A stretch of 64,000 nt of DNA. Origin: a virus. Below the pieces are notes generated by a model. It saw only the letters and a program-made list of their open reading frames with translations, was not told where the DNA came from and ran no database searches. Both the position numbers and the translations under genes were made by a program. Within the stretch, counting starts at the first letter, position 1. The number at the start of each line of letters is the position of its first letter. Where the stretch lies: the IMG/VR virus record IMGVR_UViG_3300032523_001141, positions 55,991 to 119,990 of that record; one strand, given 5' to 3'. Of the stretch, positions 38,737 through 63,991 are shown one piece after another.

Positions 38737-39552
38737 TCAGAACTGCGGCACAAGCCTATATGGTTTTCCATTAATTAAAATTGTGCCGCTAACGTCTACA
38801 ACGCCCTTGTTCTTTTTTTGTGTGTTTTTACTGACTTTACCGTAAAGTTTTACCATCTCGTCGATGTCGCCTTTTTGCGGCTTGGTGACAGTTGGGTCGT
38901 AGTAGGGCGCCATTAAGTTACCACGGCCAAGGTGCTCTAAACCAAGCGCGTGTCCAAGTTCGTGGCAGGTAACGGCTACTGCCATGTCAAAAGTCCACTC
39001 CTCCGCTTCGTCGTACATCTGGTCAAGCTGCATGTTTGCCGTAACACCGCACGGCAGCTCGCTCCACGCGAGCGTGCCGCCGCGGTCGTCTAGGTTCACG
39101 CCGCGGCCTTTCCCAGACCGCGCGTGGATGTTTGCGTGATTAACGTCGTCTACACGCACGGGCTCGATAGCGCACACATTAGCCCACTGCATAATAGCCG
39201 CGTCAAACGCCAGCGTAGCCTGCACATCAGTAATGCCGGGCAGCACTAATTTAGAGTGATACGTAATGTTTTTATGCGGCCATTTACACACGTTATCTTT
39301 GCTCGTGATATTAAAGTCTGGCAAACCACAGCGGTGGCGGGCCATGACGTGCGCCGTACGCGGGCCCACAATGCCGGTCGGCTCAAGGCCGTGAAAATTC
39401 TGATACTCACGAACAACGGCTTCTAATGACTTGCCGCTAATTTTTTTAATTTGCGCCCACGACTGGCTACCGAAGTAACCAAGCTTCTGCAGCCGCTTGA
39501 GTATCTCTGTTGCTGATAAAACGTTTTTTTGTTCTGATTTTGATTTTGCCAT
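38737..39552 (-). CDS. Matrixin (M10/MMP-like) metalloprotease with PG-binding-like prodomain
   Basis: LQKLGY...YQNFHGLEPTGIVG, cysteine switch RCGLPD, HELGHALGLEH, Met-turn LMAP. Confidence 0.85.
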   Translation of the reverse strand: MAKSKSEQKNVLSATEILKRLQKLGYFGSQSWAQIKKISGKSLEAVVREYQNFHGLEPTGIVGPRTAHVMARHRCGLPDFNITSKDNVCKWPHKNITYHSKLVLPGITDVQATLAFDAAIMQWANVCAIEPVRVDDVNHANIHARSGKGRGVNLDDRGGTLAWSELPCGVTANMQLDQMYDEAEEWTFDMAVAVTCHELGHALGLEHLGRGNLMAPYYDPTVTKPQKGDIDEMVKLYGKVSKNTQKKNKGVVDVSGTILINGKPYRLVPQF

Positions 39553-41802: not shown

Positions 41803-43737
41803 TTATGACAACGCAGCGAGTACGTTGCCTCCGTGACGGTTAATCATCTGCGTCGCGAAACCGGGCTGTTTAGGAGCCTCACCGCGAGCTAGTGCCATAT
41901 TTTGCTGATGCCGGTAAGCCGGGTCTAGTGTTTTGCGCCAGCTTTCAGTATTTGCCTGCATATGCAGTTGATTGTCGCCTCTATTTTTTACGGTCATTAG
42001 ATGCTTTACGAAATTACGCCACACAGATTCATCTTTGCTGTAAGCGACAGGCGTAGCTTTAAGTTGCGCTAGATACGGCTCAGCTTCTGCTGCTTTTGCG
42101 CGCACCTTTACGTCAGGCGGAATAATAGTCGGGTCGGCGTGGAACTTGAATTTAGTGGGGTCATGCGTGACGCCCATGTGATGCGGCAGCGGGTCGTCCA
42201 CGTACCACTCATTCGGGGCCTTGAGCATTAATTCGCGTAAGATAGCATTCTTTTGATCGTATCTTTTAGCGTCAGAATGCTCTTTGGCGGCACGCAGCTG
42301 CAAAATAATTGCGGGTGTTTTATTTACCGTTTCTTTTTGCTCTTTGTGCGTATAGTAGGCGGGCTCTGTTTGCAGATAATCCTTGGCAATTTCTTTGGCG
42401 ATTTGATCATTGTCGGTATGTTCTCGCTCATCTTCGACTCCCGTAGCTAATTGTTTAGGTGAGAATTTACTGTCGGGGATATTGTCCGCCGTAACGCTCG
42501 GAAGAATATCGGCAGCTGTCTTTTTAGCGGCGTTAGCAATAATATGCTGCAAGGCCGCGAGTCGGCCGGCGGCGACACTTGGCGCCATAAAGTTTTTGTG
42601 GCCTGCCATCATTTCCGCTGCTGCGGACGGGTTGTACATCTTGCGCTGGGCTGCGTCCCACTTATCAAGATTTTTTCGTCGCAACTTATTAAGAATGTCC
42701 ACCGCGACAAAATGAGTGCGAGACCCCGCAAAATTGCGCTGTTTTTCTTGACGATGTTTTTCGCTCCACGCATTGTCTACCGGGGCTACTGGCAATACAC
42801 GCGGATTTGTCGCTTTTATGCCGGTCTCTTCTTCAAGTTCGCGAATCGCCGCTTGCCCGGGATCTTCACCGGGATCTATACCGCCCCCCGGAACAGCAAA
42901 AGATTTGTCTGTATTCCAAATTCCGCCGTAAATGCGGCCTTTAGGGTCGTGCGCGTAAACCTCTACTCGTTCGCGCCACGGTAATTTGTCGGCCGGCGTA
43001 TCCCACGGCGCGCCTTCGTGCGCTGCAGTCTTGCGCGTGCTGCAACAACCAAACTTTTTACAAACACATGTCGCGGGGCAGGTGCACGTTCCAGAACAAC
43101 TGCAGTCGTAAGTTGTTTTATCGTCAGATGCGGCTTTTAGCTCGCCGCGACCAGACGCAGCATCAAATTTGCTTACGGCATTATTACCAAGAACTCGGCG
43201 GCGGCGGCAAGCAACTGTAATGTGAAACGCGTGGTCGCCGTTCGGTAACGGTGATAGGCCGTAACTTTTGCGGAGCGCGGTCAGCGCGGGGCTAACAACT
43301 TGCACAGCCCAGACGCGGCTAATACCGTCTACGTTGCTGACTGGTATTTCCTTTACAGGCCCGAGCCCGTAGTTGAACATTTGCCCGCGTTCATTAATCT
43401 TGTCCGCACCGATAGCCGCTACCTCATCGGCCGTAAGCACCGAGATATGCGCATTTAACGCGTCTTCAGCCACCCCGGGGACGTTCATTAGGCCTGCAAT
43501 CGGGAGCTCAGCGCCGGGCGCGGTTAACGCCGAAAACAGACCGCGCACGAAAGCGTTCGGCACTGACAGCAGCAGCCAGCCGCTTTTAGACAGGTACAGG
43601 CGGCCGGCAAGATGATAGTTTGTAGCGGCAGTTTTGCAATTAAGCGCTACACAGCCGTGCGCGTGTCCGCGCGCGTAGAAAACTTCCTGCAGTTCAGGAG
43701 ATAGCGGCTGTAAAAAAGATATACCATCCATACTCAC
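41803..43737 (-). CDS. Polyvalent protein: 2H phosphoesterase + Cys-rich segment + NUDIX hydrolase + DUF5661-like + unknown domains
   Basis: HISV/HITV 2H motifs; CSCSGTCTCPATCVCKKFGCC; complete Nudix box GGIDPGEDPGQAAIRELEEETG; GVEDEREHT...AKEIAKD...YY. Confidence 0.8.
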   Translation of the reverse strand: MSMDGISFLQPLSPELQEVFYARGHAHGCVALNCKTAATNYHLAGRLYLSKSGWLLLSVPNAFVRGLFSALTAPGAELPIAGLMNVPGVAEDALNAHISVLTADEVAAIGADKINERGQMFNYGLGPVKEIPVSNVDGISRVWAVQVVSPALTALRKSYGLSPLPNGDHAFHITVACRRRRVLGNNAVSKFDAASGRGELKAASDDKTTYDCSCSGTCTCPATCVCKKFGCCSTRKTAAHEGAPWDTPADKLPWRERVEVYAHDPKGRIYGGIWNTDKSFAVPGGGIDPGEDPGQAAIRELEEETGIKATNPRVLPVAPVDNAWSEKHRQEKQRNFAGSRTHFVAVDILNKLRRKNLDKWDAAQRKMYNPSAAAEMMAGHKNFMAPSVAAGRLAALQHIIANAAKKTAADILPSVTADNIPDSKFSPKQLATGVEDEREHTDNDQIAKEIAKDYLQTEPAYYTHKEQKETVNKTPAIILQLRAAKEHSDAKRYDQKNAILRELMLKAPNEWYVDDPLPHHMGVTHDPTKFKFHADPTIIPPDVKVRAKAAEAEPYLAQLKATPVAYSKDESVWRNFVKHLMTVKNRGDNQLHMQANTESWRKTLDPAYRHQQNMALARGEAPKQPGFATQMINRHGGNVLAALS

Positions 43738-44601: not shown

Positions 44602-45606
44602 TTACAAAATTTTTGCGGCAATCAAACAGCCCCTGGCAACTGCGTGAAGCGGATCCGCTGCATGCCTAACTTCTTTAACGGCCAGCGGAAACCCATTTGC
44701 AGCCAATTTTTCGGCAAGTAATTTAACAAAACCCGCAGCTTTTGATGTTCCGCCCGCTACGGCAATAGGTAGCGGAGCTTTGAACTTCGGTAGCAACTTG
44801 TGCCCGGTTAGCGCCGCGGCAAGTTGCTTTGTGGTGTAGTCAATCAGCCGTTCGTAATACGCCGACACAGCAGCCAAAATGTGATTTTCGTTTGGCTCGC
44901 CTACTTGAAACACGCCGTGCTCTTTTTCCGCCTGCACAACGCTATCCGGCTCGTTAACAGCTACGGCCGACATTCGATCAACCCAGTCGCCGGATTTGGT
45001 TGTCGAAAACATTACAGTAGGCTCGCCGCTAAGCATTACGCAGACATTTACCATACCGGCACCAAAAGATAAGCCAATACCGGTGTAATCGTCGTTTTCA
45101 AATTCTGAGTAGCACAGCGCCTCAGCTTCGTTAATAGCCCGCGCAAGATAGCCGGCCCCGGCCAAAATAAGCTTAACGACGTCTTCGTGGTACCCGACGT
45201 CAAAATCCGTGTCTTCTTGATCTACAGGCTGCGCCGGAATACAGAACACGATCTTTTCGTCCGCCTCGTCGGCTTTACCCACGACTTCTTGCAGAATAAA
45301 AGCTAGTATGCGTTTTGCGTCTTTTTCTTTAGGGCTAACAACTCCGCGATACATCGGACGTTTGGCCGAGTCATTGCGCTCAACGGCTTTCTCGATTGCG
45401 TCCTGCCCGAGCAGAATAAAGGTACCGTCCTCGTCTTTTACAAATATTTTGCCGGCGAGCCCCTTTTCAATCATTTTGGTAGCGACTGGCGTGGTTGGCT
45501 TAATTGCGTAAAACGCGTCGCGAAAGTCTTTGTAGTCCACGTTTCCCTCTGCGCCGTCTTTCGCGAGGACAATGAACGATGTACCAACGTCTAAACCTTT
45601 TGCCAT
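44602..45606 (-). CDS. Actin-fold ATPase (MreB/FtsA/MamK-like)
   Basis: Phosphate-1 GLDVGTS, connect INEAEA, phosphate-2 GLSFGAG, adenosine VAGGTS, terminal DPLHAVARG. Confidence 0.85.
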   Translation of the reverse strand: MAKGLDVGTSFIVLAKDGAEGNVDYKDFRDAFYAIKPTTPVATKMIEKGLAGKIFVKDEDGTFILLGQDAIEKAVERNDSAKRPMYRGVVSPKEKDAKRILAFILQEVVGKADEADEKIVFCIPAQPVDQEDTDFDVGYHEDVVKLILAGAGYLARAINEAEALCYSEFENDDYTGIGLSFGAGMVNVCVMLSGEPTVMFSTTKSGDWVDRMSAVAVNEPDSVVQAEKEHGVFQVGEPNENHILAAVSAYYERLIDYTTKQLAAALTGHKLLPKFKAPLPIAVAGGTSKAAGFVKLLAEKLAANGFPLAVKEVRHAADPLHAVARGCLIAAKIL

Positions 45607-51625: not shown

Positions 51626-54478
51626 TTACCGCACTTTCGGTGGCGTTGCCGGTTTTGCTGGCGCGGCGAGGGAGGTCGGCTGGCGACGAGCGTTGATGGC
51701 CGCCTGCTTTATTGCCTGCTGCTTAAAACTGTGGTCCCACCAAGCCTTCATGCCAGCAGCGTCCAGCGTAGCGGGGTTCTGCATATGACTGGGCTTTTTG
51801 GCAGGAGTGCCAGTGGCTACGCTCGTCGCCGGGCGGGGAGCTGCCTTAAACGGTGACGGCGCTGGCGCTGGCGTTAAAGACGGCGGGTCAATATCGGTGG
51901 ACGGAAGCACCCTTGGGCGCGCGACGGTCGGCTGTAGAGGCGCCGGGCGCAAATAATTGTGCCGCGCCCCGACGGTTGTTTGAAATGGCGTCATCTTTTT
52001 CCCGGGCTGCACTGAGCCTTTATTAACGTAAAGGTTGTACAACTGCTGGTCAGTAGCTTTTGGGTTATAGGCTATTCCGTGCTGTTTAAACGCCGCTTCC
52101 GCATAAGCGCGGTCAAATGGTGTCTTACTAAACTGCGGCTGCGCCGGTTGTTGCGGGGCGGCTTGAGGCGGACACACGCCGCCCGGGCACGCAACCTGCA
52201 CTGCTTTTTTCTCAATCTTTTTCTTCTTTTTCTTGCCGCCAATCGGGCGGCAGGAGTCGTTGCTGTAAGGCTTCTTGCCCGGCACAGGCTCGTAACCAGA
52301 CCAGCAACGCGCAGCTTTACGCATAACGTGCAGGCTAGTTTTTTTCCAGCCGCGGTTGGCTAGCTGCTGCGCTTCAAATTTAGCGCGTTCTGGTGTGCCG
52401 GGAGCGCCAAAGTAACGCGCACTCCATGTTCCGGGTTTAGCTGCTTCGGGAGAAAGTCCGAGCGTGCGGGCGGCGAAAGTATCCCACCCAGGTTCTTGTA
52501 ACCGCTCTTTTGCCAACGTATTAAAATTTTGATTTACGTGTTGGGCAGCGTTGTTATACATGTAATTAGGATCCTCTGAATCAGCCATAAACTTTTCAGC
52601 CGTTGCGCTAAAGTTAGCGTAAGGCCCAACTTCTTCACGCACTTTTGCAAGCTCTGCTTTAGCTGCGTCTGGGCCTTGCTTAGAAGCCGCTTCAAGCCTG
52701 CCGCGGATATCAGCTTCGTTAGGTGCTTTGCCGCCGAGCGCGCCAATTACACTTCCAATACCGCTGTTAGCAGCCTCAGCCGCTTCTTGGCCAAACAAGC
52801 CGCCACTAGCGCCGGCTAACCCCGCCGCGCCAATACCGAGCGCCCCCAGTAACATACCGGCTCCGCTGCCGCCTAACACTCCGAGAAGCGCTAACGGTAC
52901 GCCAATGGCAAAAGCCATCTGCCCGGCAGTTCCTAAACCTTCCCACATCTGAGTAATTTGCCCAAACTCGCGCGGACTGTTGGCGCCGGCCCCGCCTGTG
53001 GCATCGTTAACAAAATTGCCGAGCGCAGGCTGCATATATTCTTTTTCAAACGCTTGCGCCTCTGGCGTCTTTTCGCCTCTTGCAAACGCGGCGGCAGCTG
53101 TTTGCGTCGGCGCGTCAAGGTTTAACGTGCTAGCGTAATCAGTGATAAGCGTTTCGCGCGCTTTCGGGTCCGTTGTAGTTTTAAGCTTAGCCTGCAGGTC
53201 AGTAGCCGCGGCGGTTTGCTGCTCTGGCGTAAGTTGCGGCTTATCAGCAACTGGAGCCGCTGTACCGGCACCTGTAGCAGCTACGCCGCCCGCACCACCA
53301 GCGGCATAAGGCAGGCGCTCTTTGTCCGCCGCCGGTGCCGCTGTGGGTGGTGTAGCCGGCGGCGGCACTACCGGTTTTGGATTAGCGCCAACAGCGTCAA
53401 CTGCTAGCGTATTAAACTGCGCTTGCAGCTCGGGGCTAAGTTTTGCGACATCATCCATCGAACTAATGTTATTATTGGCTAAGAACGTTTCAAATTGGCT
53501 TGGCGGCTTATCAGCAACTGGAGCCGCGGTACCAGCACCTGTTGCAGCTACGCCGCCCGGACCACCCGCGGCGTAAGGCAGCCGCTCTTTATTTGCAATC
53601 GGAGCTGCGGAGGCGGGCAGCGGTGATGGCGCTAAATCTGCCTGCGGCTGATTAGAGCCTGGAAAAATATAGTTACCAACCGCGCGGGAAACATCGGCGG
53701 TGGCGTTCAACGCCGTCGGCATCGGGAACATTAGGGTGCCAGCAACTGGATTTGATGTTAACGGTACTCCTGTATTTTCTTCAATTTGTTGTGCGCCTTG
53801 ATGCAATGCAAAGTTGCCCGTGCCCACGTAGCCCATGTTAGGGCCGGCAGTTCCAGTTAAACGCCGCCATCGATCAAAAATAGCTTTAGCCGGATTTCCG
53901 CCAGCAGCGGCAGGGGCAGGAGCAGGCGCCGAAGGCGCTGGCACACCGCCTGCAGCCGGAACAGGCGCAGGAGCAGAAGCCGGCGCTGGAGTTGGAGCGG
54001 GTTTGGGCGCGGGCGCTGGAGTTGGCGCTATCTTTGGCGCCGGTGCCTGCGCGTTTGGAGAGTTATACAGTAATTTATTAAGAGCCTCTGGGTCGCCACT
54101 CTTTCGCGCGGCGTCAATAGCTGCGCGCTGTTTAGGAGAAATCAAAGGAACGTTCGGAAACCGAAGCGCTGGTTTTGCCGTTGTCGCGGCAGCGTCAACA
54201 ACTGGCGCTGCAGCATTAACGACAGGTGTTACGGCCTTTGCTGCTGGCTTTGCGGCTGTTGCGGCTGCATCAACAACTGGCGTTACAGCTTTAGCCGCAG
54301 GCTTTGCTGCGCCTCTGAAAGCTGTAACTGCGTTTCCCGCAAGAGTTCCAAGCGCGGCCAAGGCATTAGCAGATTGTTTTACAGTGTCCAGTTTATCTGC
54401 GCGGGCCAGCGCCAAATTAACTAAAGCTTTTGCGTATTCGCGATGCAGGATCTCAGTCGCTAATTTCTTCTGCGCCAT
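51626..54478 (-). CDS. Large Ala/Pro-rich modular protein with TM segments and CWxGY module
   Basis: ~950 aa; VKQSA, RKAA, EKKA linkers; CWSGYEPVPGKKPYSNDSC; glycine-zipper helices. Confidence 0.7.
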   Translation of the reverse strand: MAQKKLATEILHREYAKALVNLALARADKLDTVKQSANALAALGTLAGNAVTAFRGAAKPAAKAVTPVVDAAATAAKPAAKAVTPVVNAAAPVVDAAATTAKPALRFPNVPLISPKQRAAIDAARKSGDPEALNKLLYNSPNAQAPAPKIAPTPAPAPKPAPTPAPASAPAPVPAAGGVPAPSAPAPAPAAAGGNPAKAIFDRWRRLTGTAGPNMGYVGTGNFALHQGAQQIEENTGVPLTSNPVAGTLMFPMPTALNATADVSRAVGNYIFPGSNQPQADLAPSPLPASAAPIANKERLPYAAGGPGGVAATGAGTAAPVADKPPSQFETFLANNNISSMDDVAKLSPELQAQFNTLAVDAVGANPKPVVPPPATPPTAAPAADKERLPYAAGGAGGVAATGAGTAAPVADKPQLTPEQQTAAATDLQAKLKTTTDPKARETLITDYASTLNLDAPTQTAAAAFARGEKTPEAQAFEKEYMQPALGNFVNDATGGAGANSPREFGQITQMWEGLGTAGQMAFAIGVPLALLGVLGGSGAGMLLGALGIGAAGLAGASGGLFGQEAAEAANSGIGSVIGALGGKAPNEADIRGRLEAASKQGPDAAKAELAKVREEVGPYANFSATAEKFMADSEDPNYMYNNAAQHVNQNFNTLAKERLQEPGWDTFAARTLGLSPEAAKPGTWSARYFGAPGTPERAKFEAQQLANRGWKKTSLHVMRKAARCWSGYEPVPGKKPYSNDSCRPIGGKKKKKKIEKKAVQVACPGGVCPPQAAPQQPAQPQFSKTPFDRAYAEAAFKQHGIAYNPKATDQQLYNLYVNKGSVQPGKKMTPFQTTVGARHNYLRPAPLQPTVARPRVLPSTDIDPPSLTPAPAPSPFKAAPRPATSVATGTPAKKPSHMQNPATLDAAGMKAWWDHSFKQQAIKQAAINARRQPTSLAAPAKPATPPKVR
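53238..53590 (-). repeat. 86-bp intragenic direct repeat (two copies)
   Basis: 53238-53323 and 53505-53590 both encode KERLPYAAGG(P/A)GGVAATGAGTAAPVADKP. Confidence 0.85.
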
Positions 54479-54869
54479 TTGGTACATCCTTGTCTGGCTG
54501 GCCAGCACGAACGACGTCCTTGTCGCTGTGGTGCGTGCTGAACTCAAACATCATCGACTCTTCAAGCCCATGAAACTTGTGCCACATTCCCGGCGGAATA
54601 TGGAAGGCCATATCAGGCGTCAGTATCAACTGTGCGGCGGCGTTTACGTCTTCGTCCCATCCGTAGGTTAAAAGCACTTTGCCGCGCTCTAGATACATCA
54701 CCTCGTCTTTAACTTTGTGGTAGTGAAAGCTGCACTCTTTGCTTTTTTCAATAAACAGCTTTTTGCCGCAATAGCGCCCGTTCCAAATCCAATCTTCGTA
54801 GCCCCACTTCTTTTCAACGTATACGCGTTGCTCAGCGTTAACTACAAACCGTTTTTGGTTGACGCCCAC
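54453..54869 (-). CDS. Cupin-domain protein
   Basis: KKWGYE, SFHYHKVKDE, IPPGMWHKF. Confidence 0.8.
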   Translation of the reverse strand: MGVNQKRFVVNAEQRVYVEKKWGYEDWIWNGRYCGKKLFIEKSKECSFHYHKVKDEVMYLERGKVLLTYGWDEDVNAAAQLILTPDMAFHIPPGMWHKFHGLEESMMFEFSTHHSDKDVVRAGQPDKDVPNGAEEISD

Positions 54870-55036: not shown

Positions 55037-55507
55037 TCAGACTTGGCCGGGCATTTTTGATTTGCCGTCAAGCGAGCCTGCGTCGCCAAGCTCTTCAACA
55101 GGGTTACTCTTTTTTGGCTTAAATGAGTCAACAAGCCTGAAGCTTTGCGGTGCTTTTGGATTCAAATCTGGATATTGATTGCCTGCGGGCAATTGTCCGC
55201 TGACTACCGGCTTTGCGGCTAAAAGCTTTGCCAGTTCTGGGCCAGCAGCGTAGCCGCCAGCGCCGCCAGCAAGAGCGGCAAGAATAGCCGGCATATAGGA
55301 GCCGTCGCCGCGCTCTTCGTCTTCCTTTGAGCGCATAAGCTTCTGGATCCCCATCGCGCCAAGGCCGGCTGCCGTAGCGCCACCAGCAGCGCCCATAACT
55401 TCCGGCGTCATGTACTGCGACAGAGCCGAAAAGTCAGGAAGCATGCTTTCGCCTGCGGCGATCTTTTGCGTAAACCGGCGTAAAACCTGTACGTCTTTAG
55501 CACTCAT
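55037..55507 (-). CDS. Glycine-zipper protein (QKIAA)
   Basis: GAAGGATAAGLG and ALAGGAGG helices. Confidence 0.65.
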   Translation of the reverse strand: MSAKDVQVLRRFTQKIAAGESMLPDFSALSQYMTPEVMGAAGGATAAGLGAMGIQKLMRSKEDEERGDGSYMPAILAALAGGAGGYAAGPELAKLLAAKPVVSGQLPAGNQYPDLNPKAPQSFRLVDSFKPKKSNPVEELGDAGSLDGKSKMPGQV

Positions 55508-55673: not shown

Positions 55674-56204
55674 TCACTTTTCGCTGCAGCGAAAAACCAC
55701 GGAATATCGGTGCCCCGGAACCGGCAAAATAGAGTGCAACCAAATATACCGAATTTCCCCGCGTATCTGCACTAAGCTTCTTCGCGGGAGCTCCACGTCA
55801 AACGTAATATTTTCTCGTTCAAACCGCATGATCGCGGCAGACTCAAGGCTCAGTACCGTAATTATGGCGCCAGAGTTTTTACTGTCAACGTGGGGCTGAA
55901 TAGTTTGGCCGTGCTCGTATTCGTTAATTGACACAGAGTCGGGCTTAGTGAGCAGTAGGTTGTGCGCCAACAGCCGCTCTGAGTAATCGTCCAAATAGTC
56001 GGGCACGTACTTAGCCTGCATAAACGAATTGTACGGAATGTTCGAGCCAAAGCGTTGAACGTTCGAGCGGCCAGCGGTTTTTAATTGCTTTTTGCGCTCG
56101 GTGTTATTGAGCGTAGCGATAAGCGCAGCTTCTTCTTCTACCGTAATAAAATCTGCGTAGAGGCTTATCCCGATGTTTTCGCGTCCTGTGACAAGTTGCT
56201 GCAT
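55674..56204 (-). CDS. AlkB-like 2OG-Fe(II) oxygenase
   Basis: INEY, HVD, LSL, WLHSI, RYSVVFR. Confidence 0.85.
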   Translation of the reverse strand: MQQLVTGRENIGISLYADFITVEEEAALIATLNNTERKKQLKTAGRSNVQRFGSNIPYNSFMQAKYVPDYLDDYSERLLAHNLLLTKPDSVSINEYEHGQTIQPHVDSKNSGAIITVLSLESAAIMRFERENITFDVELPRRSLVQIRGEIRYIWLHSILPVPGHRYSVVFRCSEK

Positions 56205-56320: not shown

Positions 56321-56565
56321 TTTTTAAATTTGACCACAAGATACGTTCCAAGAAATGCGCCGGCGGCTAGCGGTAGGATATAAACTGGATTTCTTGAGTA
56401 CGTCATGACGCCAAGCGCGGCCAACGTATAAATTCCCGAAGTCATGGTTGCCGCCACGACCGGCTGCCTATTGTTTACAGCAATAATATACCATGCGTAG
56501 AGTACATCAATTACAACGTACACGCAAAAAATAGTAAACGCAGTCTGCAGGTCAAAGTCTTTCAT
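56317..56565 (-). CDS. Small three-TM membrane protein
   Basis: 82 aa hydrophobic; GAFLGTYLVV. Confidence 0.6.
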   Translation of the reverse strand: MKDFDLQTAFTIFCVYVVIDVLYAWYIIAVNNRQPVVAATMTSGIYTLAALGVMTYSRNPVYILPLAAGAFLGTYLVVKFKK

Positions 56566-56909
56566 AGTACAGACTGCATAAAACTACGTTCGTACGCCGA
56601 ATACACCTCGCTGTACGCGACGCCCCACGCCGGGTCATGCGCAAGTTTATTGAACAGCTCATCGGTGGGGGCAGCGTCCAGCATGTGGTTCCACGCCCGC
56701 GCGTGCGCCCACTCGTGGACTAGCACGTCCATGGCGCGGGCCTCGTCCAGCGAGGTGTCAATTTGAATAAGAAATTTTTTACCTTGTTTCCAACAACGGC
56801 CTTCAAGTCTTTTATTTAACTTTATGCGGCGGACTGATATGGGGTATGCGGGCGGGACCGCCGCCCGAAGCGCCTTAATCAGGTTTTTGTAAGTCTTGAA
56901 ATTGGCCAT
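56562..56909 (-). CDS. Zincin-like (SprT/ImmA-like) metalloprotein
   Basis: GRC...IQID...LVHEWAH...HDPAWG. Confidence 0.7.
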   Translation of the reverse strand: MANFKTYKNLIKALRAAVPPAYPISVRRIKLNKRLEGRCWKQGKKFLIQIDTSLDEARAMDVLVHEWAHARAWNHMLDAAPTDELFNKLAHDPAWGVAYSEVYSAYERSFMQSVL

Positions 56910-57003: not shown

Positions 57004-60000
57004 TCAGTCGTCAGCATTAGGGTCTGAACCGACTAGGAAATCTCGGAGCTTTTCGTAAGTTGTCCGCTTATCGTCTGGCTCGTCTTTAAATTCTTTTTCA
57101 GCTATTACTTTGTGTTTCTTTGGCGAAAGGTATTTTTGATACGCCAACCCCGGGATTGGCGTGCCAACATATAATCGGGGGGCGCGATTTCCAAACGTCA
57201 TGCTTGTGCCCGGAATAATTTTTTTCAGTGTGAGGCTAGGCCCGCCAAGTGATAAATTAAGCGCCATATTCTCGTTTACTGGAAAACGTTTGTACCAACG
57301 AAAACCAGCCTGCTTGCCGAACGCCACAAGTTCTGCGCTGCATTTACATCGCCATTTGCGTAGTGATTTGTTAATGCGCGAGTCAGGATCGTTAGCGGTA
57401 CTGGCGCCGGTGTTCACCCGCTTCATGCCGCACATGCGGGAACAAAACGAATTCTGCCGATCTGCCCGTTCGCCGGTCGGTTTGCTTTCTGTAACAGGCG
57501 CTTTTAAATTTCCCCCGGTTGCGCGCTCGTAACTTTTTCGGCCCTTTTCATTAAGACCGCCCTCTTCGTTCTTGCCCGCTGAGCGCTGCCAAGCCGGCGT
57601 TCCGCCGGCTTCTTTTTGATTTTTGCCCTCTGCTGTATCCGCAAAACACTCGTCGTCGCTGTCTAAATCTTCGGGGTCCGGGGGCAGTGAAAGCTGCATG
57701 CTGGTAAGCGCAGCTAATGCTTCATTACCCGCAGCGCGTTTGCCAAACTCAAGCGCGGCTGTCTTTTTAGTGCCCATCTCGCGCAGCAACTCTCGGAAAC
57801 GTTCGTTGAGCTTTTCTTTTTCGTTAGATAGTCTTTCCAAGATCTCGTCTCCTGTGCGTTCGCGGCGGTGGCCCATTAGCTTGCCCAGCCAGCTCGGCTC
57901 TTCTGACTTTGAGATAAACCGCTGCACACGTACGTCTTTAAGTTCTTCTGGTAAATCGTCGTGGCTGTCAAAGCGCAGACCACGGCCACGCGCCTGCTGT
58001 GTGCGGCTTTCATGCCAATGCGGGTCCAAGAGCTGAATCAAGTTAGTGCCCTTTGTAGACAAGCCTTCGGCGCCAGCAGGGCCAATTAACAGTGCGCGGA
58101 GCTTGCCGGCGTTATAATCCGAAAGCGCCCTCTGTCGCGCTTTCATTGGGACGCCGCCGTGAAACACGCCGTACGGCACATTAAATTTATCTAGTGCTGC
58201 GGCATAAGGCTCTACACCTGCGCCAATATGATTTGAGTAAATAATCGCTTTTTTGCGCGGATCAGAGTCGAGCATTTCTTGTAACTTGGAATAGGCGTTT
58301 TGAAGCTTTCCAGACTGCTGAAATGACTTAAATGCGTCGTTATCTTGGCGGAATGGCCGAGTGCTCACCGAGTTCTGCCGCAAGCCAGTTAAAAAGCTAT
58401 TGAGCTTTGCCAACTCGTCTTTGCTCAGCGGAAACTCGCGGTCTAGTTTCCAGAGAAAACCCGGCGGAATCTTTGTACGCAGCGCTTTCTGAATCTTCTG
58501 CTGCGAACCAGACATCGGGACTTCAATCTTCTCTTCGTTGACGTTCACGCCCTCAGGAGTTTTGCTGGCTTGGTAATCAACGCGACCCTCAAGCAAGCTG
58601 CGCAACTCCGCCTCGTTTTTAATAACAGGCTTTACGCCGGGCTTTACACCGCCAAGAAAATTAAACAAACCCGGGTGCACGGTCTTGTAACCAATAAACT
58701 TCTTCTCAAACTCTTGCGGGGAAATATTCTTTCGCGCAACAATCGAAATAAGATTAGCAAGGTCCGTCGGCGAGTTCGTGATGGGCGAGCCGGTCAGCAG
58801 TAAGACGCGCTTGGCTTGGTTAGCAGCCTCGCGGGCAGCTTGAGCCGCAGATCCCCCGGGGTTTCTAAGCCTGTGCGCTTCGTCCATAATGAGCGTCTGC
58901 GGAGCGCCCTTAAACTTCTTGCCCATTCCAAGCGCTGTATAGCTCAAGATCTCGGGGCTTGAGCCGGTCGTGAATTTCTCGACTTCTTTCTGGAAGTTCC
59001 CCCGCAAACTTGCCGGGGCTACGATTCCATAGTCGTCCTGATATTTCTTTTTAGCAGCTTCGGCAGCAGCAAGGGCCGAGAGAGATTTTCCAGAACCTAA
59101 CCCGTGATACAAAATCATCCGCGGGTTTTCGTCGTTTACGGCATCTTGAATGCGCTCTTGATGCGGCTGAAGATTAACTTCGGGAAGCAGAGCGGATTGC
59201 TTGGTTAGCTCGCCAAACCGCTTGCGTAATGATTCTTTGTCAGCAAACTGTTCGATGTTTTTCATATGATCGACCAGCTTCACAATATGCGCTTTTGTTG
59301 GCGTAACGTCATTCGGAACAGCCCAGCCAAGATTAGGGTCTGTTGCTGGTGGCGGTGAATACTTATCAGATGCGTATTCGTAAACGTGGCCCTCGGGGAG
59401 CAGCTCGTTGTCTTTGTGGATAAGAAGCTTTGGATTCTCACCACCCACAACAGCCATACCGCGGCGATCCTTAGCCAAAGCGTATAGCGCAGCCCAATTT
59501 ATATTGTCAGCCCCGTAAACTCCCGCGCCACCCATGTTCGGCTGAGTGGCTTTGAGCGACGTTAAGCCGGGCGTAGTTGAGCCGTGGTAGAACGTCTTTT
59601 GCGCCGCCACTTTCTCTGCTACATACTTCTGCATAGCTTTTGTTTTGTATGTATCAAGCATCTCGTCTACTGCACCATTTCGCGGCTCGTTAGTGACCAA
59701 TTTCGCAGGGTCGATTCCCCAATTACGTAACGCCCAGCCGCGCCTTGGAGTTGGGTTTTTAGCAAATGGCTTACCATGGCGCGCTTTAAAACTCAGCCAA
59801 CGCTTAATCTGCCGGGTGTCTTCCTCAGGAATCCTACGGCCAGACGAATACCGCTTGTACCACTGCGCCCAGCCCTTTGGGTCGTGCTCTGACACCCATT
59901 CGGGCTTCCATTCGCCCAGACTAGCTAACCTTGGCCCTTGGCCCCTGTACAGCGAGTCATACACGCCCAGAGCTTCAAGCTGTTCGGGTGTGTAATCAGG

Positions 60001-60039
60001 CTGGAACTTGGCCGCGGTGTCAGTGGGTTGTTCATCCAT
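57004..60039 (-). CDS. Polyvalent protein: GWxQWY domain + ART-like domain + SNF2-type helicase + DUF6321-like + DUF4236-like
   Basis: DPKGWAQWYKRY; FYHGS...GVY; HGLGSGKS, DEAH, TGSP, QARGRGLR; WQRSAGKNEEGGLN...SFCSRM; GFRWYKR. Confidence 0.8.
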   Translation of the reverse strand: MDEQPTDTAAKFQPDYTPEQLEALGVYDSLYRGQGPRLASLGEWKPEWVSEHDPKGWAQWYKRYSSGRRIPEEDTRQIKRWLSFKARHGKPFAKNPTPRRGWALRNWGIDPAKLVTNEPRNGAVDEMLDTYKTKAMQKYVAEKVAAQKTFYHGSTTPGLTSLKATQPNMGGAGVYGADNINWAALYALAKDRRGMAVVGGENPKLLIHKDNELLPEGHVYEYASDKYSPPPATDPNLGWAVPNDVTPTKAHIVKLVDHMKNIEQFADKESLRKRFGELTKQSALLPEVNLQPHQERIQDAVNDENPRMILYHGLGSGKSLSALAAAEAAKKKYQDDYGIVAPASLRGNFQKEVEKFTTGSSPEILSYTALGMGKKFKGAPQTLIMDEAHRLRNPGGSAAQAAREAANQAKRVLLLTGSPITNSPTDLANLISIVARKNISPQEFEKKFIGYKTVHPGLFNFLGGVKPGVKPVIKNEAELRSLLEGRVDYQASKTPEGVNVNEEKIEVPMSGSQQKIQKALRTKIPPGFLWKLDREFPLSKDELAKLNSFLTGLRQNSVSTRPFRQDNDAFKSFQQSGKLQNAYSKLQEMLDSDPRKKAIIYSNHIGAGVEPYAAALDKFNVPYGVFHGGVPMKARQRALSDYNAGKLRALLIGPAGAEGLSTKGTNLIQLLDPHWHESRTQQARGRGLRFDSHDDLPEELKDVRVQRFISKSEEPSWLGKLMGHRRERTGDEILERLSNEKEKLNERFRELLREMGTKKTAALEFGKRAAGNEALAALTSMQLSLPPDPEDLDSDDECFADTAEGKNQKEAGGTPAWQRSAGKNEEGGLNEKGRKSYERATGGNLKAPVTESKPTGERADRQNSFCSRMCGMKRVNTGASTANDPDSRINKSLRKWRCKCSAELVAFGKQAGFRWYKRFPVNENMALNLSLGGPSLTLKKIIPGTSMTFGNRAPRLYVGTPIPGLAYQKYLSPKKHKVIAEKEFKDEPDDKRTTYEKLRDFLVGSDPNADD

Positions 60040-60301: not shown

Positions 60302-61135
60302 CTATTTTTCTAGTGTGTGAAGGTGGGGGCTCAGCGTTAACCGACTTTGAATGCTGAGCTCATGCAACTCGATTTGCGAGTTAATCCAGTCATAATACAG
60401 GCTCACGCGCGTATGGCCGGATTCTGTATGATACCGGCTGTCTGGTTTTTTTCCGATATCACACATGACAAACGAGTGAATGCCGGCTAGTTTGTTACCG
60501 AGAAAAAGGCCGCCGCCTGAGTCTCCTGAGCAAATTAAATACTCAAGCTCAGTTCGGTTTTGCTGGCTAGGGGTAAGAATAAGCGCAGGGCCGCGGGCTA
60601 GCTCTATTTTATTGCTGCCCGCGCGCCGTTTTTCGTCATCAGCGTTTGGGCCCGTTAAGAATGTGCCGTTTGAGCCATAGCCGGCCAAGCTGCAAATCTG
60701 GTCTTGCTCGTCAAAGTCTTTATAGAGTTCTGGATAAAACGCTAATTTCATATCATCGGCGATATAGCACAGCGCTATGTCGTGCAGGCCCAAAATTTGA
60801 GGCTCTGGCGTATAGTCTGCGTGAATAATCTGCTTTGCAACCGCGACCGTACGGCCGTCGTCAAACATTAGTACCGCTTCGTCGGCTTCATAAAGCACGT
60901 GCGCGGCTGTAATTGCCCAATTGGGCCGTATGAGCACCGCAGACGCAAAAGCCGTCGTGCGGCCATTTTTGCGGGGATAGATAGCCCGCAAACGAGCGAC
61001 GCAATTAAATTTTGCGCCATAAGCAAGATATTTAGTATCTGGAGTGTTGGGGTCGCGGGTGCCTGAGTAACTTGGGGCTGGTAGAAGAAGCGTAATACCC
61101 AAAATTAAAGATAGCAATAGATTGACGCGTCGCAT
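60302..61135 (-). CDS. Secreted trypsin-like serine protease
   Basis: Signal peptide; TAAHV, HDIAL, GDSGGG catalytic triad; SD AAGGAGG. Confidence 0.9.
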   Translation of the reverse strand: MRRVNLLLSLILGITLLLPAPSYSGTRDPNTPDTKYLAYGAKFNCVARLRAIYPRKNGRTTAFASAVLIRPNWAITAAHVLYEADEAVLMFDDGRTVAVAKQIIHADYTPEPQILGLHDIALCYIADDMKLAFYPELYKDFDEQDQICSLAGYGSNGTFLTGPNADDEKRRAGSNKIELARGPALILTPSQQNRTELEYLICSGDSGGGLFLGNKLAGIHSFVMCDIGKKPDSRYHTESGHTRVSLYYDWINSQIELHELSIQSRLTLSPHLHTLEK

Positions 61136-61229: not shown

Positions 61230-62513
61230 CTATTTGTGTTTAAGCTCTAATTGCGGCGCACCAGCTTCATTCATAAACTGCATGCTTTTTGGTTCTGTAA
61301 ACCTAAACCGCTGGCTTACCCACGGATGCTCTTCAGTAAGCACGTTGTCCCAGAAAAGCCGGCCGAGCAAGCTGCCAATAAAAGACGTATTTGTTTGGTC
61401 TTTTGAATAGCCGGGCAGCTCTGCTTGCGCGCCATACCACTTTGGATTCAAAACTTTTCGGCCGGTGATCGCGTCCCAGATGTATTTCTTCTCGTTAGAA
61501 GTTGGCGTAACGTCCCACCGATCAAGCACGCGGCCTTCAAGATTTTTACCGTCTGGCTTTGTCGCAAGCAGCTGATCGCCAAGCAGCGTACTAGAACCAA
61601 ACAAGCCAAAATCTGATGTAGTGACTCCGCTAGAGCCGCTATTCATATTGGCTATAGAACTTTGTGGAGACACCAGCATTTCATTCCTATGTTGCATTGA
61701 TGCGCCGTGCTCGTCTTTGGTTTTCCACGGCAAATTGGTTGGCATAAACAAATTATTCAAGCGCCGCAGATAATCCGGTGACTTCTCGTTAAGCGAGTAA
61801 TAGTCTGGGCCTTTGCCGCCTTTATTTTTCTGCCAGTAATCTGCCCCCGCGTCACTATGCACGCCAAAAGACCGCCGAGTAAGTTCACGGCGCGATTGCA
61901 CAACGTCGTCAAGTACATCTTTGTTCCCGCCCAACGCTGGCAAAAGTGCCTTGAGCTCTTCGGGGTCGTAGGCCGGCTTGTCTGCAAAAAACGCGCGACC
62001 AAATTGCGCAAAAGATTTAGGCGTTAAATCAGCGCTGCCGTACCCAGCCGGAATTTTAACGTTAGAGATATACCGACGCGCGCGGTCACCGACAACATTT
62101 GCGCCCACGCCACCGATTGCCGCGCCCGTAAGAATACGCCGCAATGCTGTCGGCAACTTTTTCTTGTCTTTAGGCGTCGGAGAAAGCATGTCATAAAGCG
62201 CGCCACCACCAGCTCCCGCAGCAGCTCCAAGCAGAATATCCTTGGTATGCACGCCCGGCAGCTGCGCTTTAATGCTCTGCCAGTCTGCAGCTTTTAAAAG
62301 TTTCTTGCGCTGCTGGTCTTCCTGATGCCGTTTATACAGCAGCATTAAGCCCAGTGCGCCGACGCCTGCAAGCGGCACGCCAGCAGCCAAATAACCCTTT
62401 GGGATATTGGAGTATGGCGTGTACGTGTTCGTAAACCCCGGCTCAGTGTTTGCACTTAGCGTGGGGTCTGTCTGTGCAATTTGTGCCGCGTCGTCAACGG
62501 TGAAGTCTGCCAT
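61230..62513 (-). CDS. Glycine-zipper modular protein (LKAAD linker)
   Basis: 427 aa; GAAAGAGGGALY, GAAIGGVG. Confidence 0.65.
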   Translation of the reverse strand: MADFTVDDAAQIAQTDPTLSANTEPGFTNTYTPYSNIPKGYLAAGVPLAGVGALGLMLLYKRHQEDQQRKKLLKAADWQSIKAQLPGVHTKDILLGAAAGAGGGALYDMLSPTPKDKKKLPTALRRILTGAAIGGVGANVVGDRARRYISNVKIPAGYGSADLTPKSFAQFGRAFFADKPAYDPEELKALLPALGGNKDVLDDVVQSRRELTRRSFGVHSDAGADYWQKNKGGKGPDYYSLNEKSPDYLRRLNNLFMPTNLPWKTKDEHGASMQHRNEMLVSPQSSIANMNSGSSGVTTSDFGLFGSSTLLGDQLLATKPDGKNLEGRVLDRWDVTPTSNEKKYIWDAITGRKVLNPKWYGAQAELPGYSKDQTNTSFIGSLLGRLFWDNVLTEEHPWVSQRFRFTEPKSMQFMNEAGAPQLELKHK

Positions 62514-62545: not shown

Positions 62546-63991
62546 TCAGCCTTCTTCGTCGCTACCGTCTTGTTTCTTTTTCTTCTTCTTGCTCATAAGG
62601 TGATACGCCAGCGCGGATAACCCAGCAGCGCCAAGCCCAGCACCGCCAATTGCGCCCCACGGCAAGTCAGCTAAACCAGCCATAGCGCTTGGCGCGTCAG
62701 CTTTAGGGGCGTCAGCTTTAGGGGCGTCAGCTTTAGGGGCGTCAGCTTTAGGGGCGTCAGCTTTAGGGGCGGCGGGTTTGGTGCCACGTGGGAATGGCGT
62801 CATACCCGGCTTATCGGGGCCGGTAAAAAGCTCAGGGCCGAGCGTGCTGGCCGCATAAGCGCCCTCGCCTATTGCTTTACCGGCGCTAAGCCGCGCGTTG
62901 TTTACCGCAGATGCGCCCGAGCTTATTGCGTTACCGGCACTACTCGCAGCACTACGGCCGGCGTTAAGTAACGACGCCAGCAGCGTGAGTTTTTCCGGAA
63001 CAAGGTCGAGTTTCTGCCCCCCGACTGGCGGCATTCGCGACGGTGCTTGCCCGGGCGCATACTCAGAAGCGTACGGCGACATTTTTGCCGGCATTTGATC
63101 TAGCAGATTAGATCGCACCGGCCGACTCGAGGACGGCGCAACATTACCTGTTAAATTCTCTAAATCATATGCGACCTTCCAGCCAAACGCGTAAGCGCTT
63201 TTTTGGCCAGAGTTATGAATGTCTTTTTCAGCGTGCTCGGTCTCTTCGGTAGCTTCTACGCCGCCGTTAGCTTTTGAAATAGCCTCGTCGGCGTCCATGG
63301 CTTGCATCGGGCCAGTTTGATACACGCCGCGGTCATAATTCTTGTACATGCCCGAATCACACGGAACGCACTTGCTCTTAGCTTCTTTTTTGGCTTTTTC
63401 CTTGTATTCGCTGTCGCTGCTGTTAAATAGCTCGGCGCTCGGCTTCTCGCCCGCAGCTTCAGCCCGCATCAGCGCGTTGTTAAAGCTCTCGTGGTCGGGC
63501 AGCTTCTTTTTAGTCTCGTCTTTTGGGGCCCGTTCGTAGAAGTCCACGCGGTTTGCGACCTTGCGGCCAAAATTAGCCGCGCCAGATTTCACAGGAAGCC
63601 GAGGAGGCGGCGGAGGAGGCATAGCCGGCGAAGGGTTGCCCGCACCAGCACGACGCGCGGCAAATTCCCGAAATTGCGGACCCATGACCTGCTGCAGTTC
63701 TTGAGGAGTACCGCCGCCAGCGTTAAGACGAGCTCGCATAGCCGAGTCCGCGTTTTGTTGCGTTGCGCGGGTGACCACGGGAGCTCGACTAGTCGGCAGA
63801 GTATATCCTAGGCCAGCGTCATTCATGCGCTTCATTTCAGCCATTTCAGTTGGCGTTAATTTGGGTGGCGTCGCAGGAGTGGCCGCAGGAGTGGCCGCAG
63901 GAGTGGCCGCAGGAGTGGCCGCAGGAGGTTTGGGCGCAAGAGGTTTGGGCGCAAGAGGTTTGGGCGGAGCAGGCATAGGCGGAGCAGGCAT
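62546..63991 (-). CDS. Pro/Ala-rich modular protein with C-terminal TM and poly-Lys (start may lie beyond the window)
   Basis: KSGAANFGRKVA and KSAYAFGWKVA linkers; PKADA, PAAT and PKPLA repeats. Confidence 0.65.
   Translation of the reverse strand: MPAPPMPAPPKPLAPKPLAPKPPAATPAATPAATPAATPATPPKLTPTEMAEMKRMNDAGLGYTLPTSRAPVVTRATQQNADSAMRARLNAGGGTPQELQQVMGPQFREFAARRAGAGNPSPAMPPPPPPRLPVKSGAANFGRKVANRVDFYERAPKDETKKKLPDHESFNNALMRAEAAGEKPSAELFNSSDSEYKEKAKKEAKSKCVPCDSGMYKNYDRGVYQTGPMQAMDADEAISKANGGVEATEETEHAEKDIHNSGQKSAYAFGWKVAYDLENLTGNVAPSSSRPVRSNLLDQMPAKMSPYASEYAPGQAPSRMPPVGGQKLDLVPEKLTLLASLLNAGRSAASSAGNAISSGASAVNNARLSAGKAIGEGAYAASTLGPELFTGPDKPGMTPFPRGTKPAAPKADAPKADAPKADAPKADAPKADAPSAMAGLADLPWGAIGGAGLGAAGLSALAYHLMSKKKKKKQDGSDEEG
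62694..62770 (-). repeat. 15-bp tandem repeat x5 encoding PKADA
   Basis: GCGTCAGCTTTAGGG repeated five times. Confidence 0.9.
63873..63990 (-). repeat. 12-bp (PAAT) x4 and 15-bp (PKPLA/MPAPP) tandem repeats
   Basis: GCAGGAGTGGCC x4, then GAGGTTTGGGCGCAA-type units. Confidence 0.85.

Follow-up and report, generated by a model that had tools for sequence, protein, structure and literature searches.

The 64,000-nucleotide stretch of DNA analysed here (the window) covers positions 55,991 to 119,990 of the IMG/VR virus record IMGVR_UViG_3300032523_001141. On its minus strand, at 57004..60039 with the stop codon included, an open reading frame (ORF) encodes a protein of 1011 amino acids (P0001). 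That this protein has a modular polyvalent architecture can be stated with high confidence, its five modules being lost, reordered or interrupted among its relatives. The junctions between the modules carry a short K-x-A/S signal, which is likely to be a selected functional element and which also occurs as an N-terminal leader on other proteins of related phages. It is this conserved signal between modules, doubling as a leader, that appears to go beyond the polyvalent protein plan described so far. Overall, the product may be regarded as a polyvalent cargo string, probably packaged, with a portable processing or targeting signal, a description to which we give an even chance.

The ORF exists as an earlier note on this DNA had stated, and the strings quoted in that note are all present, in the order given and close to the coordinates given (GWAQWYKRY at residues 56–64, EKVAA at 142–146, YHGS at 151–154, GVY at 173–175, TKQSA at 279–283, KKTAA/FGKRAA at 758–770, an acidic spacer at about 785–800, QKEA at 808–811 and FGKQA at 907–911). 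The order of domains given there was also borne out, with SNF2 and DUF6321 scoring above their Pfam cut-offs. Module A (residues 1–145; 59605..60039, minus strand, as are all parts of the gene) is all-helical, its last helix ending in K143-V-A145, and is followed by module B (residues 146–279; 59203..59604), which has an ADP-ribosyltransferase (ART) fold with H152, Y175 and E221. The SNF2-type ATPase (residues 284–758; 57766..59190) is recognised by motifs I, II and VI and by Pfam. Between the third and fourth junctions lies a spacer (residues 771–808; 57616..57729) with an acidic run at about 785–800, for which scans of Pfam and PHROG-type libraries returned no family match. Module D (residues 812–906; 57322..57606) is a basic DUF6321 domain with Cys pairs (FCSRMC ... 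WRCKC), and module E (residues 912–1011; 57007..57306) combines a DUF4236-like domain with a conserved, charged C-terminal tail.

Membership of the SNF2/SWI2 group follows from Pfam scores of 40.6 bits for SNF2-rel_dom (cut-off 24.9) and 46.2 bits for Helicase_C (cut-off 23.5). Pfam ResIII and phrog_62 (5e-42) match the same module, in which motifs I (GLGSGKS), II (DEAH) and VI (QQARGRGLR) can be read directly, while sequence matches in the PDB include Rad26, Rad54 and the vaccinia proteins VETF-s (2.9e-4) and NPH-I (3.6e-3). DUF6321 (PF19846) is likewise a full member, matched over profile positions 1–72 of 72 with 75 bits (cut-off 28.5; E value 7e-21, or 8e-23 for the module alone). DUF6321-related stretches in the records of cyanophage S-SCSM1 and pelagiphage HTVC115P are labelled 'virion protein' or 'putative structural protein', and a search of open-access papers and bioRxiv found no literature on this family. 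For module E, the resemblance to DUF4236 (PF14020) that the earlier note had named extends over profile positions 1–54 of 55 (E 1e-4 for the module alone), but the scores of 18.5 bits for the whole protein and 23.1 bits for the module alone stay below the cut-off of 27, and the module is therefore called DUF4236-like only. Residues 1–283 matched no library family at standard thresholds, and NCBIfam returned for the whole protein nothing but SNF2 fragments far below cut-off.

Homologs were collected by a word-index search, in which 501 of 8000 scored candidates reached E≤0.001 and 120 were listed. These 120 family proteins range from 618 to 1745 amino acids, many of them encoded on contigs of about 200 kilobases (kb). 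Identity in the SNF2 core is 60–85% across the homologs, and this core alone is kept throughout the family. When the query is compared by BLAST with the remaining 119, five blocks are resolved, namely A (~3–145), B (146–280), SNF2 (280–770), D (~809–905) and E (909–1011), which are present or absent independently of one another, with foreign inserts of hundreds of residues between some of them. In P0047–P0049 the order is reversed, B preceding A, whereas module E is usually final, the high-scoring segment pairs (HSPs) over query residues 909–1011 reaching the C-termini of the homologs. Other partners within family proteins are NUDIX, PAP2, P-loop kinases and DUF4269. Domain swaps at the junctions, which the earlier note had anticipated, are thus evident as modules lost, reordered and interrupted. 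Several unrelated, mostly enzymatic domains in variable architectures are the hallmark of polyvalent proteins, and here they take the form of five modules.

Five junctions can be located, all at short K-x-A/S strings. Junction 1, K143-V-A145 within EKVAA (residues 142–146; ~59605–59613), lies at the end of the module A helix, and junction 2, K280-Q-S-A283 within TKQSA (279–283; 59191..59202), directly precedes LLPEVNLQPHQ. Junction 3 is bipartite, K759-T-A-A762 ... F765-G-K767-R-A-A770 (57730..57765), junction 4 is K809-E-A811 within QKEA (808–811; 57607..57615), before GGTPAWQRSAGK, and junction 5 is F907-G-K909-Q-A911 (57307..57321). The motif is narrower than the 'KxA' of the earlier note: K-x-A/S stands before each module, often in the form [F/W]-[G/A]-x(0,1)-K-x-A or K-T-A-A. 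As to the bare tripeptide, it is not enriched in the protein (7 seen, 8.2 expected by composition), is rarer than in shuffled sequences across the 120 family proteins (684 against a mean of 943), and occurs in the ORFs of the record 254 times against 223, so that enrichment was rejected; a looser pattern, [FWYLM][GA].{0,1}K.[AS], gave 26 against 23.8 in the same ORFs, again no enrichment. The module boundaries do coincide with K-x-A/S, as the earlier note had proposed. Two of the seven occurrences in the protein, K377 and K596, are inside the SNF2 core and mark no boundary.

The coincidence with boundaries was quantified by counting those BLAST-HSP edges, from query against 119 homologs, that are internal to both proteins, which gave 348 edges from 268 HSPs. 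No fewer than 250 of them fall within 12 residues of K143, K280, K759, K767, K809 or K909, six windows that together make up 13.2% of the protein length, and none falls near K377 or K596. The leftover edges are mostly at query residues 230–239 and 860–869, where HSPs extend into a similar tail at the C-terminus of the module that precedes.

Conservation of the signal was counted over unique contexts, each fixed by the conserved residues with which its module opens. In front of the SNF2 module, positions -4 and -2 hold K and A/S, respectively, in 104 of 104 contexts (126 of 126 with IMG/VR loci added), and the signal is constant while the preceding sequence varies between module A, module B, unrelated modules and a short N-terminal leader. 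The same two positions are kept before FRWYK at the start of module E (43 of 43; 45 of 45 with IMG/VR loci), and 28 of 30 contexts of module D have K-x-A/S no more than 12 residues before the DUF6321 anchor, both exceptions reading K-x-G. For modules B and A the location of the module matters: the signal is found in 32 of 33 internal as against 7 of 13 N-terminal contexts of module B, and in 71 of 104 internal as against 24 of 99 N-terminal contexts of module A (12-residue window), with many of the internal misses of module A carrying AWAKxA 13–20 residues upstream. The signal thus tracks the presence of upstream sequence, being less frequent where module A or B stands at an N-terminus. After the SNF2 module, KTAAxxFG(E)KxA recurs in homologs before unrelated downstream modules, and across 13 aligned proteins A762, G766, K909 and A911 are invariant and K759, A761 and A770 nearly so. 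At its own N-terminus the window protein keeps T-A-A-K-F-Q-P-D-Y-T-P, but has D where the junction copies have K.

A recombination signal at the level of DNA was considered and rejected. Among 23 distinct junction DNAs, the K codons are AAA in 12 and AAG in 11, and the A/S codons vary synonymously (GCT, GCC, GCG); what is under selection is thus the peptide rather than a site of DNA crossover.

On proteins with a single module the signal acts as a leader, a role that goes beyond the earlier note. A census of 37 related IMG/VR loci, with 604 unique neighbouring ORFs, yielded 96 matches in 77 unique contexts to the pattern [FWY][GAT].{0,1}K.A. Some stand at the start of neighbouring ORFs that have nothing else in common, several of these having glycine-rich membrane-like segments, and others are internal, for example WNCKCSSAxEFGxKLA following DUF6321. 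The stricter FG.K.A occurs 35 times in the 604 ORFs, where 100 shuffles gave 2.7 on average and 7 at most, and within the first 30 residues in 7 ORFs against 0.2 in shuffles. Stand-alone proteins open with M..F.FG.K[ILV]A, the leader being 7–20 residues long. At locus L042 the string is split into a 727-residue SNF2-plus-E gene and an overlapping 300-residue gene that has the leader at its start and module A at its end.

Within the record itself, KTAA occurs 7 times against 1.4 expected, a count reached in none of 200 shuffles. Three of these sites, at residues 35, 236 and 406, separate the 2H-SAK, NUDIX and DUF5661 regions (the last a weak match) of a multidomain protein encoded at 41803-43737 (minus strand). 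The ORF at 55037-55507 (minus strand) has RRFTQKIAAGE close to its N-terminus, and that at 62546-63991 (minus strand) has two FG.KVA sites. In the NUDIX/2H protein, a Cys-rich stretch precedes the second K-T-A-A site, and P0152 and similar relatives mix modules of this protein with modules A and D.

The ORFs at 55037-55507 and 62546-63991 also belong to a low-complexity, Ala/Pro-rich block with glycine-rich membrane-like segments (51626-54547, 61230-62513, 62546-63991 and 55037-55507, all minus strand), in which a fivefold KADAP repeat, a twice-repeated ANKERLPYAAGG...VADKP unit and some FG.K.A or FT.K.A signals can be seen. These look like ejection or membrane-active proteins.

The proposed mechanism is as follows. 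Five independently folding modules, arranged head to tail and each preceded by the short, portable K-x-A/S signal, would be marked by it for incorporation into the phage head and/or for endoproteolytic release, by analogy with the propeptides that T4 internal proteins and SPN3US head proteins carry at their N-termini. Once the cargo has been ejected together with the DNA, the SNF2 motor thus released would assist the virion RNA polymerase (RNAP) in early transcription, and the ART-fold enzyme would use nicotinamide adenine dinucleotide (NAD+) to modify a host component or a nucleic acid. The parts of this proposal differ in strength: packaging of the 1011-residue protein in the virion is marginally favoured by analogy with a cultured relative, and proteolysis at the junction signal, also argued by analogy, is finely balanced. 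A stronger form, in which FG-x-K-x-A or K-x-A is a portable tag on every injected cargo unit, so that enzymes, membrane-active proteins and an RNAP fragment are fused, split and shuffled as units and freed by a dedicated protease in a polyprotein strategy akin to that of RNA viruses, is put forward tentatively, as the less probable version. If this tag truly serves processing or packaging, sequence alone would suffice to list the proteins that a large and abundant group of uncultured phages injects, the cassette-like swapping of takeover enzymes would be explained, and a possible tag for loading foreign proteins into phage heads would be at hand.

The link to the virion comes from Salmonella phage Arash, which together with Pseudanabaena phage PA-SR01 is the closest cultured relative, both being distant (34% and 30% identity in the SNF2 core, respectively). 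Virion mass spectrometry of Arash, in the part of the report available, detected the SNF2 homolog Gp217 along with RNAP proteins Gp206 and Gp216 and sigma factor Gp10, Gp206 being the most abundant by spectra (PMC10585845). The DUF6321 relatives labelled as virion proteins and the RNAP-beta fragment joined to module A in some relatives point in the same direction. Gp217 (OQ632216.1), named as a DNA helicase, has 472 amino acids, and its gene directly follows that of RNAP beta-prime. It resembles the window protein in its SNF2 core, 34% identical over residues 285–755, and the two genomes share related RNAP beta-prime, structural and tail genes. Unlike the window protein, Gp217 is a bare SNF2 module, lacking modules A, B, D and E and the junction signal, and its start aligns to residue 285, where junction 2 ends. 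For PA-SR01, no virion mass spectrometry bearing on its helicase was found in the phage's paper.

Polyvalent proteins, known from phages and conjugative elements, provide the nearest precedent for the architecture. As far as the available text of Iyer et al. goes, SWI2/SNF2 and ART domains are combined in phage polypeptides, which are proposed to enter the cell along with the invading DNA and, in some cases such as P1 DdrB, to be processed by proteolysis (Iyer et al. 2017, PMC5512222); the precedent invoked by the earlier note accordingly holds. The window protein shares with them the many enzymatic domains per polypeptide and an architecture that is highly variable between relatives, and its sister protein at 41803-43737 carries the 2H-SAK domain named in that account. 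It differs in that MPTase-PolyVal, DNA methylase and other hallmark PolyVal domains were not above threshold, and in having a conserved inter-module and leader signal, which the same text, in the portion available, does not describe. Nor was a conserved signal of this kind found in the open-access and bioRxiv literature.

For the signal, the closest parallel is found in processed head proteins. T4 internal proteins and the packaged ART Alt carry a capsid-targeting leader or propeptide, and head proteins of the SPN3US type, which have phiKZ kinship, are cut at motifs that end in Glu. The available part of the SPN3US work describes a prohead protease that removes N-terminal propeptides at a motif, sometimes in several cuts, and a virion RNAP that is an internal head protein (PMC10052503). 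The likeness is one of logic: a short motif is found on several proteins, virion RNAP included, and the cargo is ejected into the host. A short motif shared at the end of an N-terminal propeptide, characteristic of processed head proteins, is present here as a pattern of letters. In contrast to the SPN3US type, the signal here is K-x-A/S and is placed not only at N-termini but also between entire enzymatic modules, and where that type has a known head-maturation protease, none was recognisable in five records of the present lineage. In open-access papers and bioRxiv, the literature on phage polyproteins, ejection proteins and cleavage motifs yielded only the SPN3US and T4 work.

Two neighbouring genes encode candidate processing enzymes. 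Directly upstream, at 60302..61135 (minus strand), lies a trypsin-fold serine protease with TAAH, DIAL and GDSGG motifs (Pfam Trypsin, 4e-16), whose best PDB matches are elastase and PR3. Its ortholog is found in 31 of the 37 related loci, in most cases as the gene immediately before that of SNF2 (contig ends truncate several of the loci), and exactly one trypsin-family gene occurs in each of five records (four near-complete relatives and the present one). In an alignment of 23 orthologs with the window's own, of which 16 rows were read, the protein has a hydrophobic, Sec-like N-terminus with an A-x-A-type end, the mature part starting at GTRDPNTPD. Judging from alignment, it appears to have I190 and the S214-F215-V/L216 string in common with enzymes whose preferred P1 residue is small, which would fit a cut after A/S. 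The second candidate is a protein of 115 amino acids with an HExxHxxxxxH motif (56562..56909, minus strand; Pfam SprT-like E 0.0031, 17.8 bits, cut-off 25.6); 24 of the 37 loci have an ortholog of it downstream of the SNF2 gene, and it had no PDB sequence match. NCBIfam returned nothing for either enzyme. A prediction of the complex between protease residues 24–277 and junction residues 735–830 scored 0.05 against a mark of 0.32, evidence neither way.

Several points weigh against the packaged and processed cargo string. Both cleavage and packaging of the 1011-residue protein are inferred for an uncultured lineage, Arash is only a distant relative, and the authors of the Arash study caution, in the part of the report available, that abundant enzymes may co-purify, 116 proteins having been detected (PMC10585845). 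The homolog counts given above include related sequences and do not represent independent events. Known families of head proteases were not found in the five records, namely Peptidase_S78 (0 of 5; control positive in 4 of 14 genomes) and ClpP (0 of 5; control positive in 13 of 14), although divergent proteases could be missed by such searches; Peptidase_S77 likewise gave 0 of 5, uninformatively so since its control was positive nowhere, and Mu-like_Pro gave one sub-threshold match and nothing above cut-off. The trypsin-fold protease is the one clearly recognisable protease conserved across the lineage, and its Sec-like signal, present in every ortholog inspected, predicts export, which would place that enzyme outside the cytoplasm and away from prohead assembly. 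Finally, K-x-A is kept where the SNF2 module is preceded by three residues only (MSEK-QA...), and for this module the signal could simply belong to the fold.

From this last observation starts the best-surviving alternative, that of an uncut multidomain polyvalent enzyme in which K-x-A is a conserved cap or linker at the N-terminal edge of each module, serving folding or spacing. It would agree with the position of K143-V-A145, which closes the long final helix in the model of module A and is not obviously an exposed loop, and with the many polyvalent proteins described without junction motifs (in the text available, PMC5512222 never uses the word 'linker'). One short signature before five unrelated folds is, however, hard to derive from the needs of folding. 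The signal is moreover often lost when module A or B starts a protein, and it is kept as a leader of 7–20 residues on unrelated stand-alone proteins, those with membrane segments included. On balance this alternative is unlikely, though not negligible.

More doubtful is the view that the signal is specifically the cleavage site of the adjoining trypsin-fold protease, which would be packaged or met outside the cytoplasm (e.g. in the periplasm at ejection) and would cut after A/S. The constancy of the gene beside the SNF2 gene and its single copy in all five records speak for such a partnership, as do the intact catalytic triad motifs, the closest solved relatives (elastase and PR3) and the small-P1 residues inferred by alignment. 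Yet the Sec-like signal and the mature start favour export over head assembly, the S1 assignment is read from alignment, and in the complete record G002 the protease gene lies about 60 kb from the SNF2 locus. Least probable of all is that the gene is mainly one for a transcription factor, its SNF2 part an RNAP accessory in the manner of RapA or NPH-I/VETF and its other modules lineage-specific accretions free of any delivery logic, for while the stand-alone Arash gene directly after RNAP beta-prime, the family-wide conservation of the SNF2 core alone and the VETF-s and NPH-I matches are in its favour, these poxvirus matches are no better than Rad26 or Rad54, the junction and leader signal and the clustering with leader-bearing proteins are left unexplained, and the idea is compatible with the packaged cargo string rather than exclusive of it.

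Module B, which the earlier note had called ART-like, is upheld as such by structure prediction, structural matches and motif. An exhaustive phmmer search with residues 146–280 against 1.84 billion proteins found only 24 representatives at E≤0.001, most of them within proteins of 1000–2300 residues, so that the module represents a small, unannotated family. The AlphaFold2 (AF2) model, built from an alignment of 18 members, has a mean predicted local distance difference test (pLDDT) score of 95.1. Foldseek returned no match at E≤0.001, its first rows nonetheless being TreX, Arr and PARP1, and in an independent search (VIA-align) nine chains reached Z≥5 and nearly all of the 50 rows shown had the ART fold. 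The matches include TreX, a small Rhs ART toxin (Z 7.9, root mean square deviation (rmsd) 3.5 over 94 aligned residues), the Tpt1-type enzyme 9ld3 (Z 6.5, rmsd 2.5 over 75), SAIP (Z 5.8), a diphtheria-toxin homolog (Z 5.5), pertussis toxin S1 (Z 5.4), Arr (Z 5.2) and PARP1 with other PARPs (Z ~4.9), all of them below 8, a range in which Z may reflect a common arrangement. Modest as these values are, the ART fold was accepted because the match list is uniform and the H-Y-E motifs are present.

The three motif residues, H152 (YHGS), Y175 (GVY) and E221 (YVYEY), follow one another in the correct order. Among 42 unique module B sequences the His is kept in 40, the Tyr in 37 (Phe in 3) and the Glu in 36, being replaced in five and gapped in one more. 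The alignment with PARP1 starts at its residue 856, which puts H862 opposite H152 if the first residues align gap-free, and H152, Y175 and E221 are taken as probable catalytic equivalents from this offset and the motif order rather than from superposed coordinates. Pfam ART-PolyVal (PF18760) scores 15.4 bits (E 0.033) against a cut-off of 31.2; ten of the 18 members match it at E≤1, the best at 0.0013 and none above cut-off, and in the same sub-threshold scan PARP was matched by one member and DUF3990 by two. Module B is thus accepted, on its model, as an ART fold with an H-Y-E signature outside every curated family. It resembles the H-Y-E ARTs (PARP, diphtheria toxin, Arr, Tpt1/KptA) and TreX in fold (Z 4.9–7.9) and in motif order, and departs from the H-Y-E ARTs in its length of only ~135 residues and in reaching no curated sequence family.

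Plausibly, the module is a predicted ADP-ribosyltransferase for which NAD+ would be the substrate and a host component or a nucleic acid the target. Of 22 relatives scanned, nine carry NUDIX in the same polypeptide, six PAP2 and 11 a P-loop kinase of AAA_18/AAA_33 type. The company of NUDIX, PAP2, 2H phosphoesterase and P-loop kinase indicates chemistry of NAD+/ADP-ribose or of RNA ends at the start of infection. The writer/eraser pair of ART and NUDIX that had been envisaged is suggested by co-occurrence only (the nine relatives in 22), and the removal of ADP-ribose from proteins is not known as an established NUDIX activity. As a separate observation, a region of a cyanophage A4 pre-ejectosome protein (PDB 9k3a, chain B) aligns with the ART-fold model at Z 4.5, which hints at ART-like domains in the ejection proteins of other phages.

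Module A is a well-conserved domain, with 26 invariant columns in 23 sequences (45–78% identity) and the motifs PRLASL..W..W, GRR..D.RQIKRW, RH, NPTPRR and NW. Its AF2 model is all-helical (pLDDT 88.8). No match was obtained in Pfam at E≤10, in Foldseek at E≤0.001 or among PDB sequences by profile, and the ESM Atlas gave only unnamed viral clusters (score 0.90). Only one structural match stood out, to mimivirus R596 in its C-terminal domain (Z 5.5 and rmsd 6.0 over 106 aligned residues, against Z 3.4 for the row that follows), and this is not a convincing relative. In related proteins the module is found alone, with NUDIX and with DUF6321, and it is C-terminal in proteins of ~490 residues whose first 300 residues match residues 41–334 of the RNAP beta/beta-prime protein of the present phage, the join between the RNAP-beta fragment and module A being K-[SRE]-A-A. 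Stand-alone module-A proteins (177–188 residues) open with M-x(2-8)-F-G-x-K-[ILV]-A-[AS] ahead of the module. The link between SNF2 motor, module A and phage RNAP suggests a bacterial-virus counterpart of the transcription helpers packaged in poxvirus virions. In one further protein, P0121 (254 amino acids), a eukaryote-like histone H3 with N-terminal tail and histone fold (Pfam Histone, 3.2e-21) is joined directly to the end of module A and a copy of module B 92% identical to the window's; either an assembly chimera or a true capture by some phage of the lineage could account for it.

The record is a virus contig of 119,990 bases, estimated to be 59% complete, of which the window forms the final 64 kb; relatives with direct terminal repeats measure 198–204 kb. 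Among its products are the large terminase, baseplate wedge and sheath-like proteins, as well as PhoH, a volactin-type actin and two tRNAs. Its RNAP consists of a fused beta/beta-prime protein of 1482 amino acids (29324-33772, minus strand), comprising beta and the N-terminal part of beta-prime, and a piece of 626 amino acids (26476-28356, minus strand) with the C-terminal remainder of beta-prime. Because terminase, baseplate wedge, sheath-like and RNAP genes stand in one record, the phage is a large, myovirus-like member of an uncultured lineage of ~200 kb with its own multisubunit RNA polymerase. Arash shares RNAP, structural and tail genes with it, and BLAST with the head proteins of Arash and PA-SR01 did not identify the major capsid protein of the record.

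A few further genes may be mentioned. The actin-like protein (334 amino acids; 44602-45606, minus strand) is matched end to end by Pfam Volactin (4e-63), and orthologs are present in three of the 37 related loci. A protein of 271 amino acids (38737-39552, minus strand) joins a peptidoglycan-binding domain to a matrixin (M10) metalloprotease and is possibly, from these domains, a lysis or entry enzyme. In PA-SR01, the SNF2 helicase (L002:7722-9518, plus strand) has an N-terminal extension of 93 residues with two twin-arginine-like strings, RRNFLK and RRQFLK, and its gene lies inside the head gene cluster.

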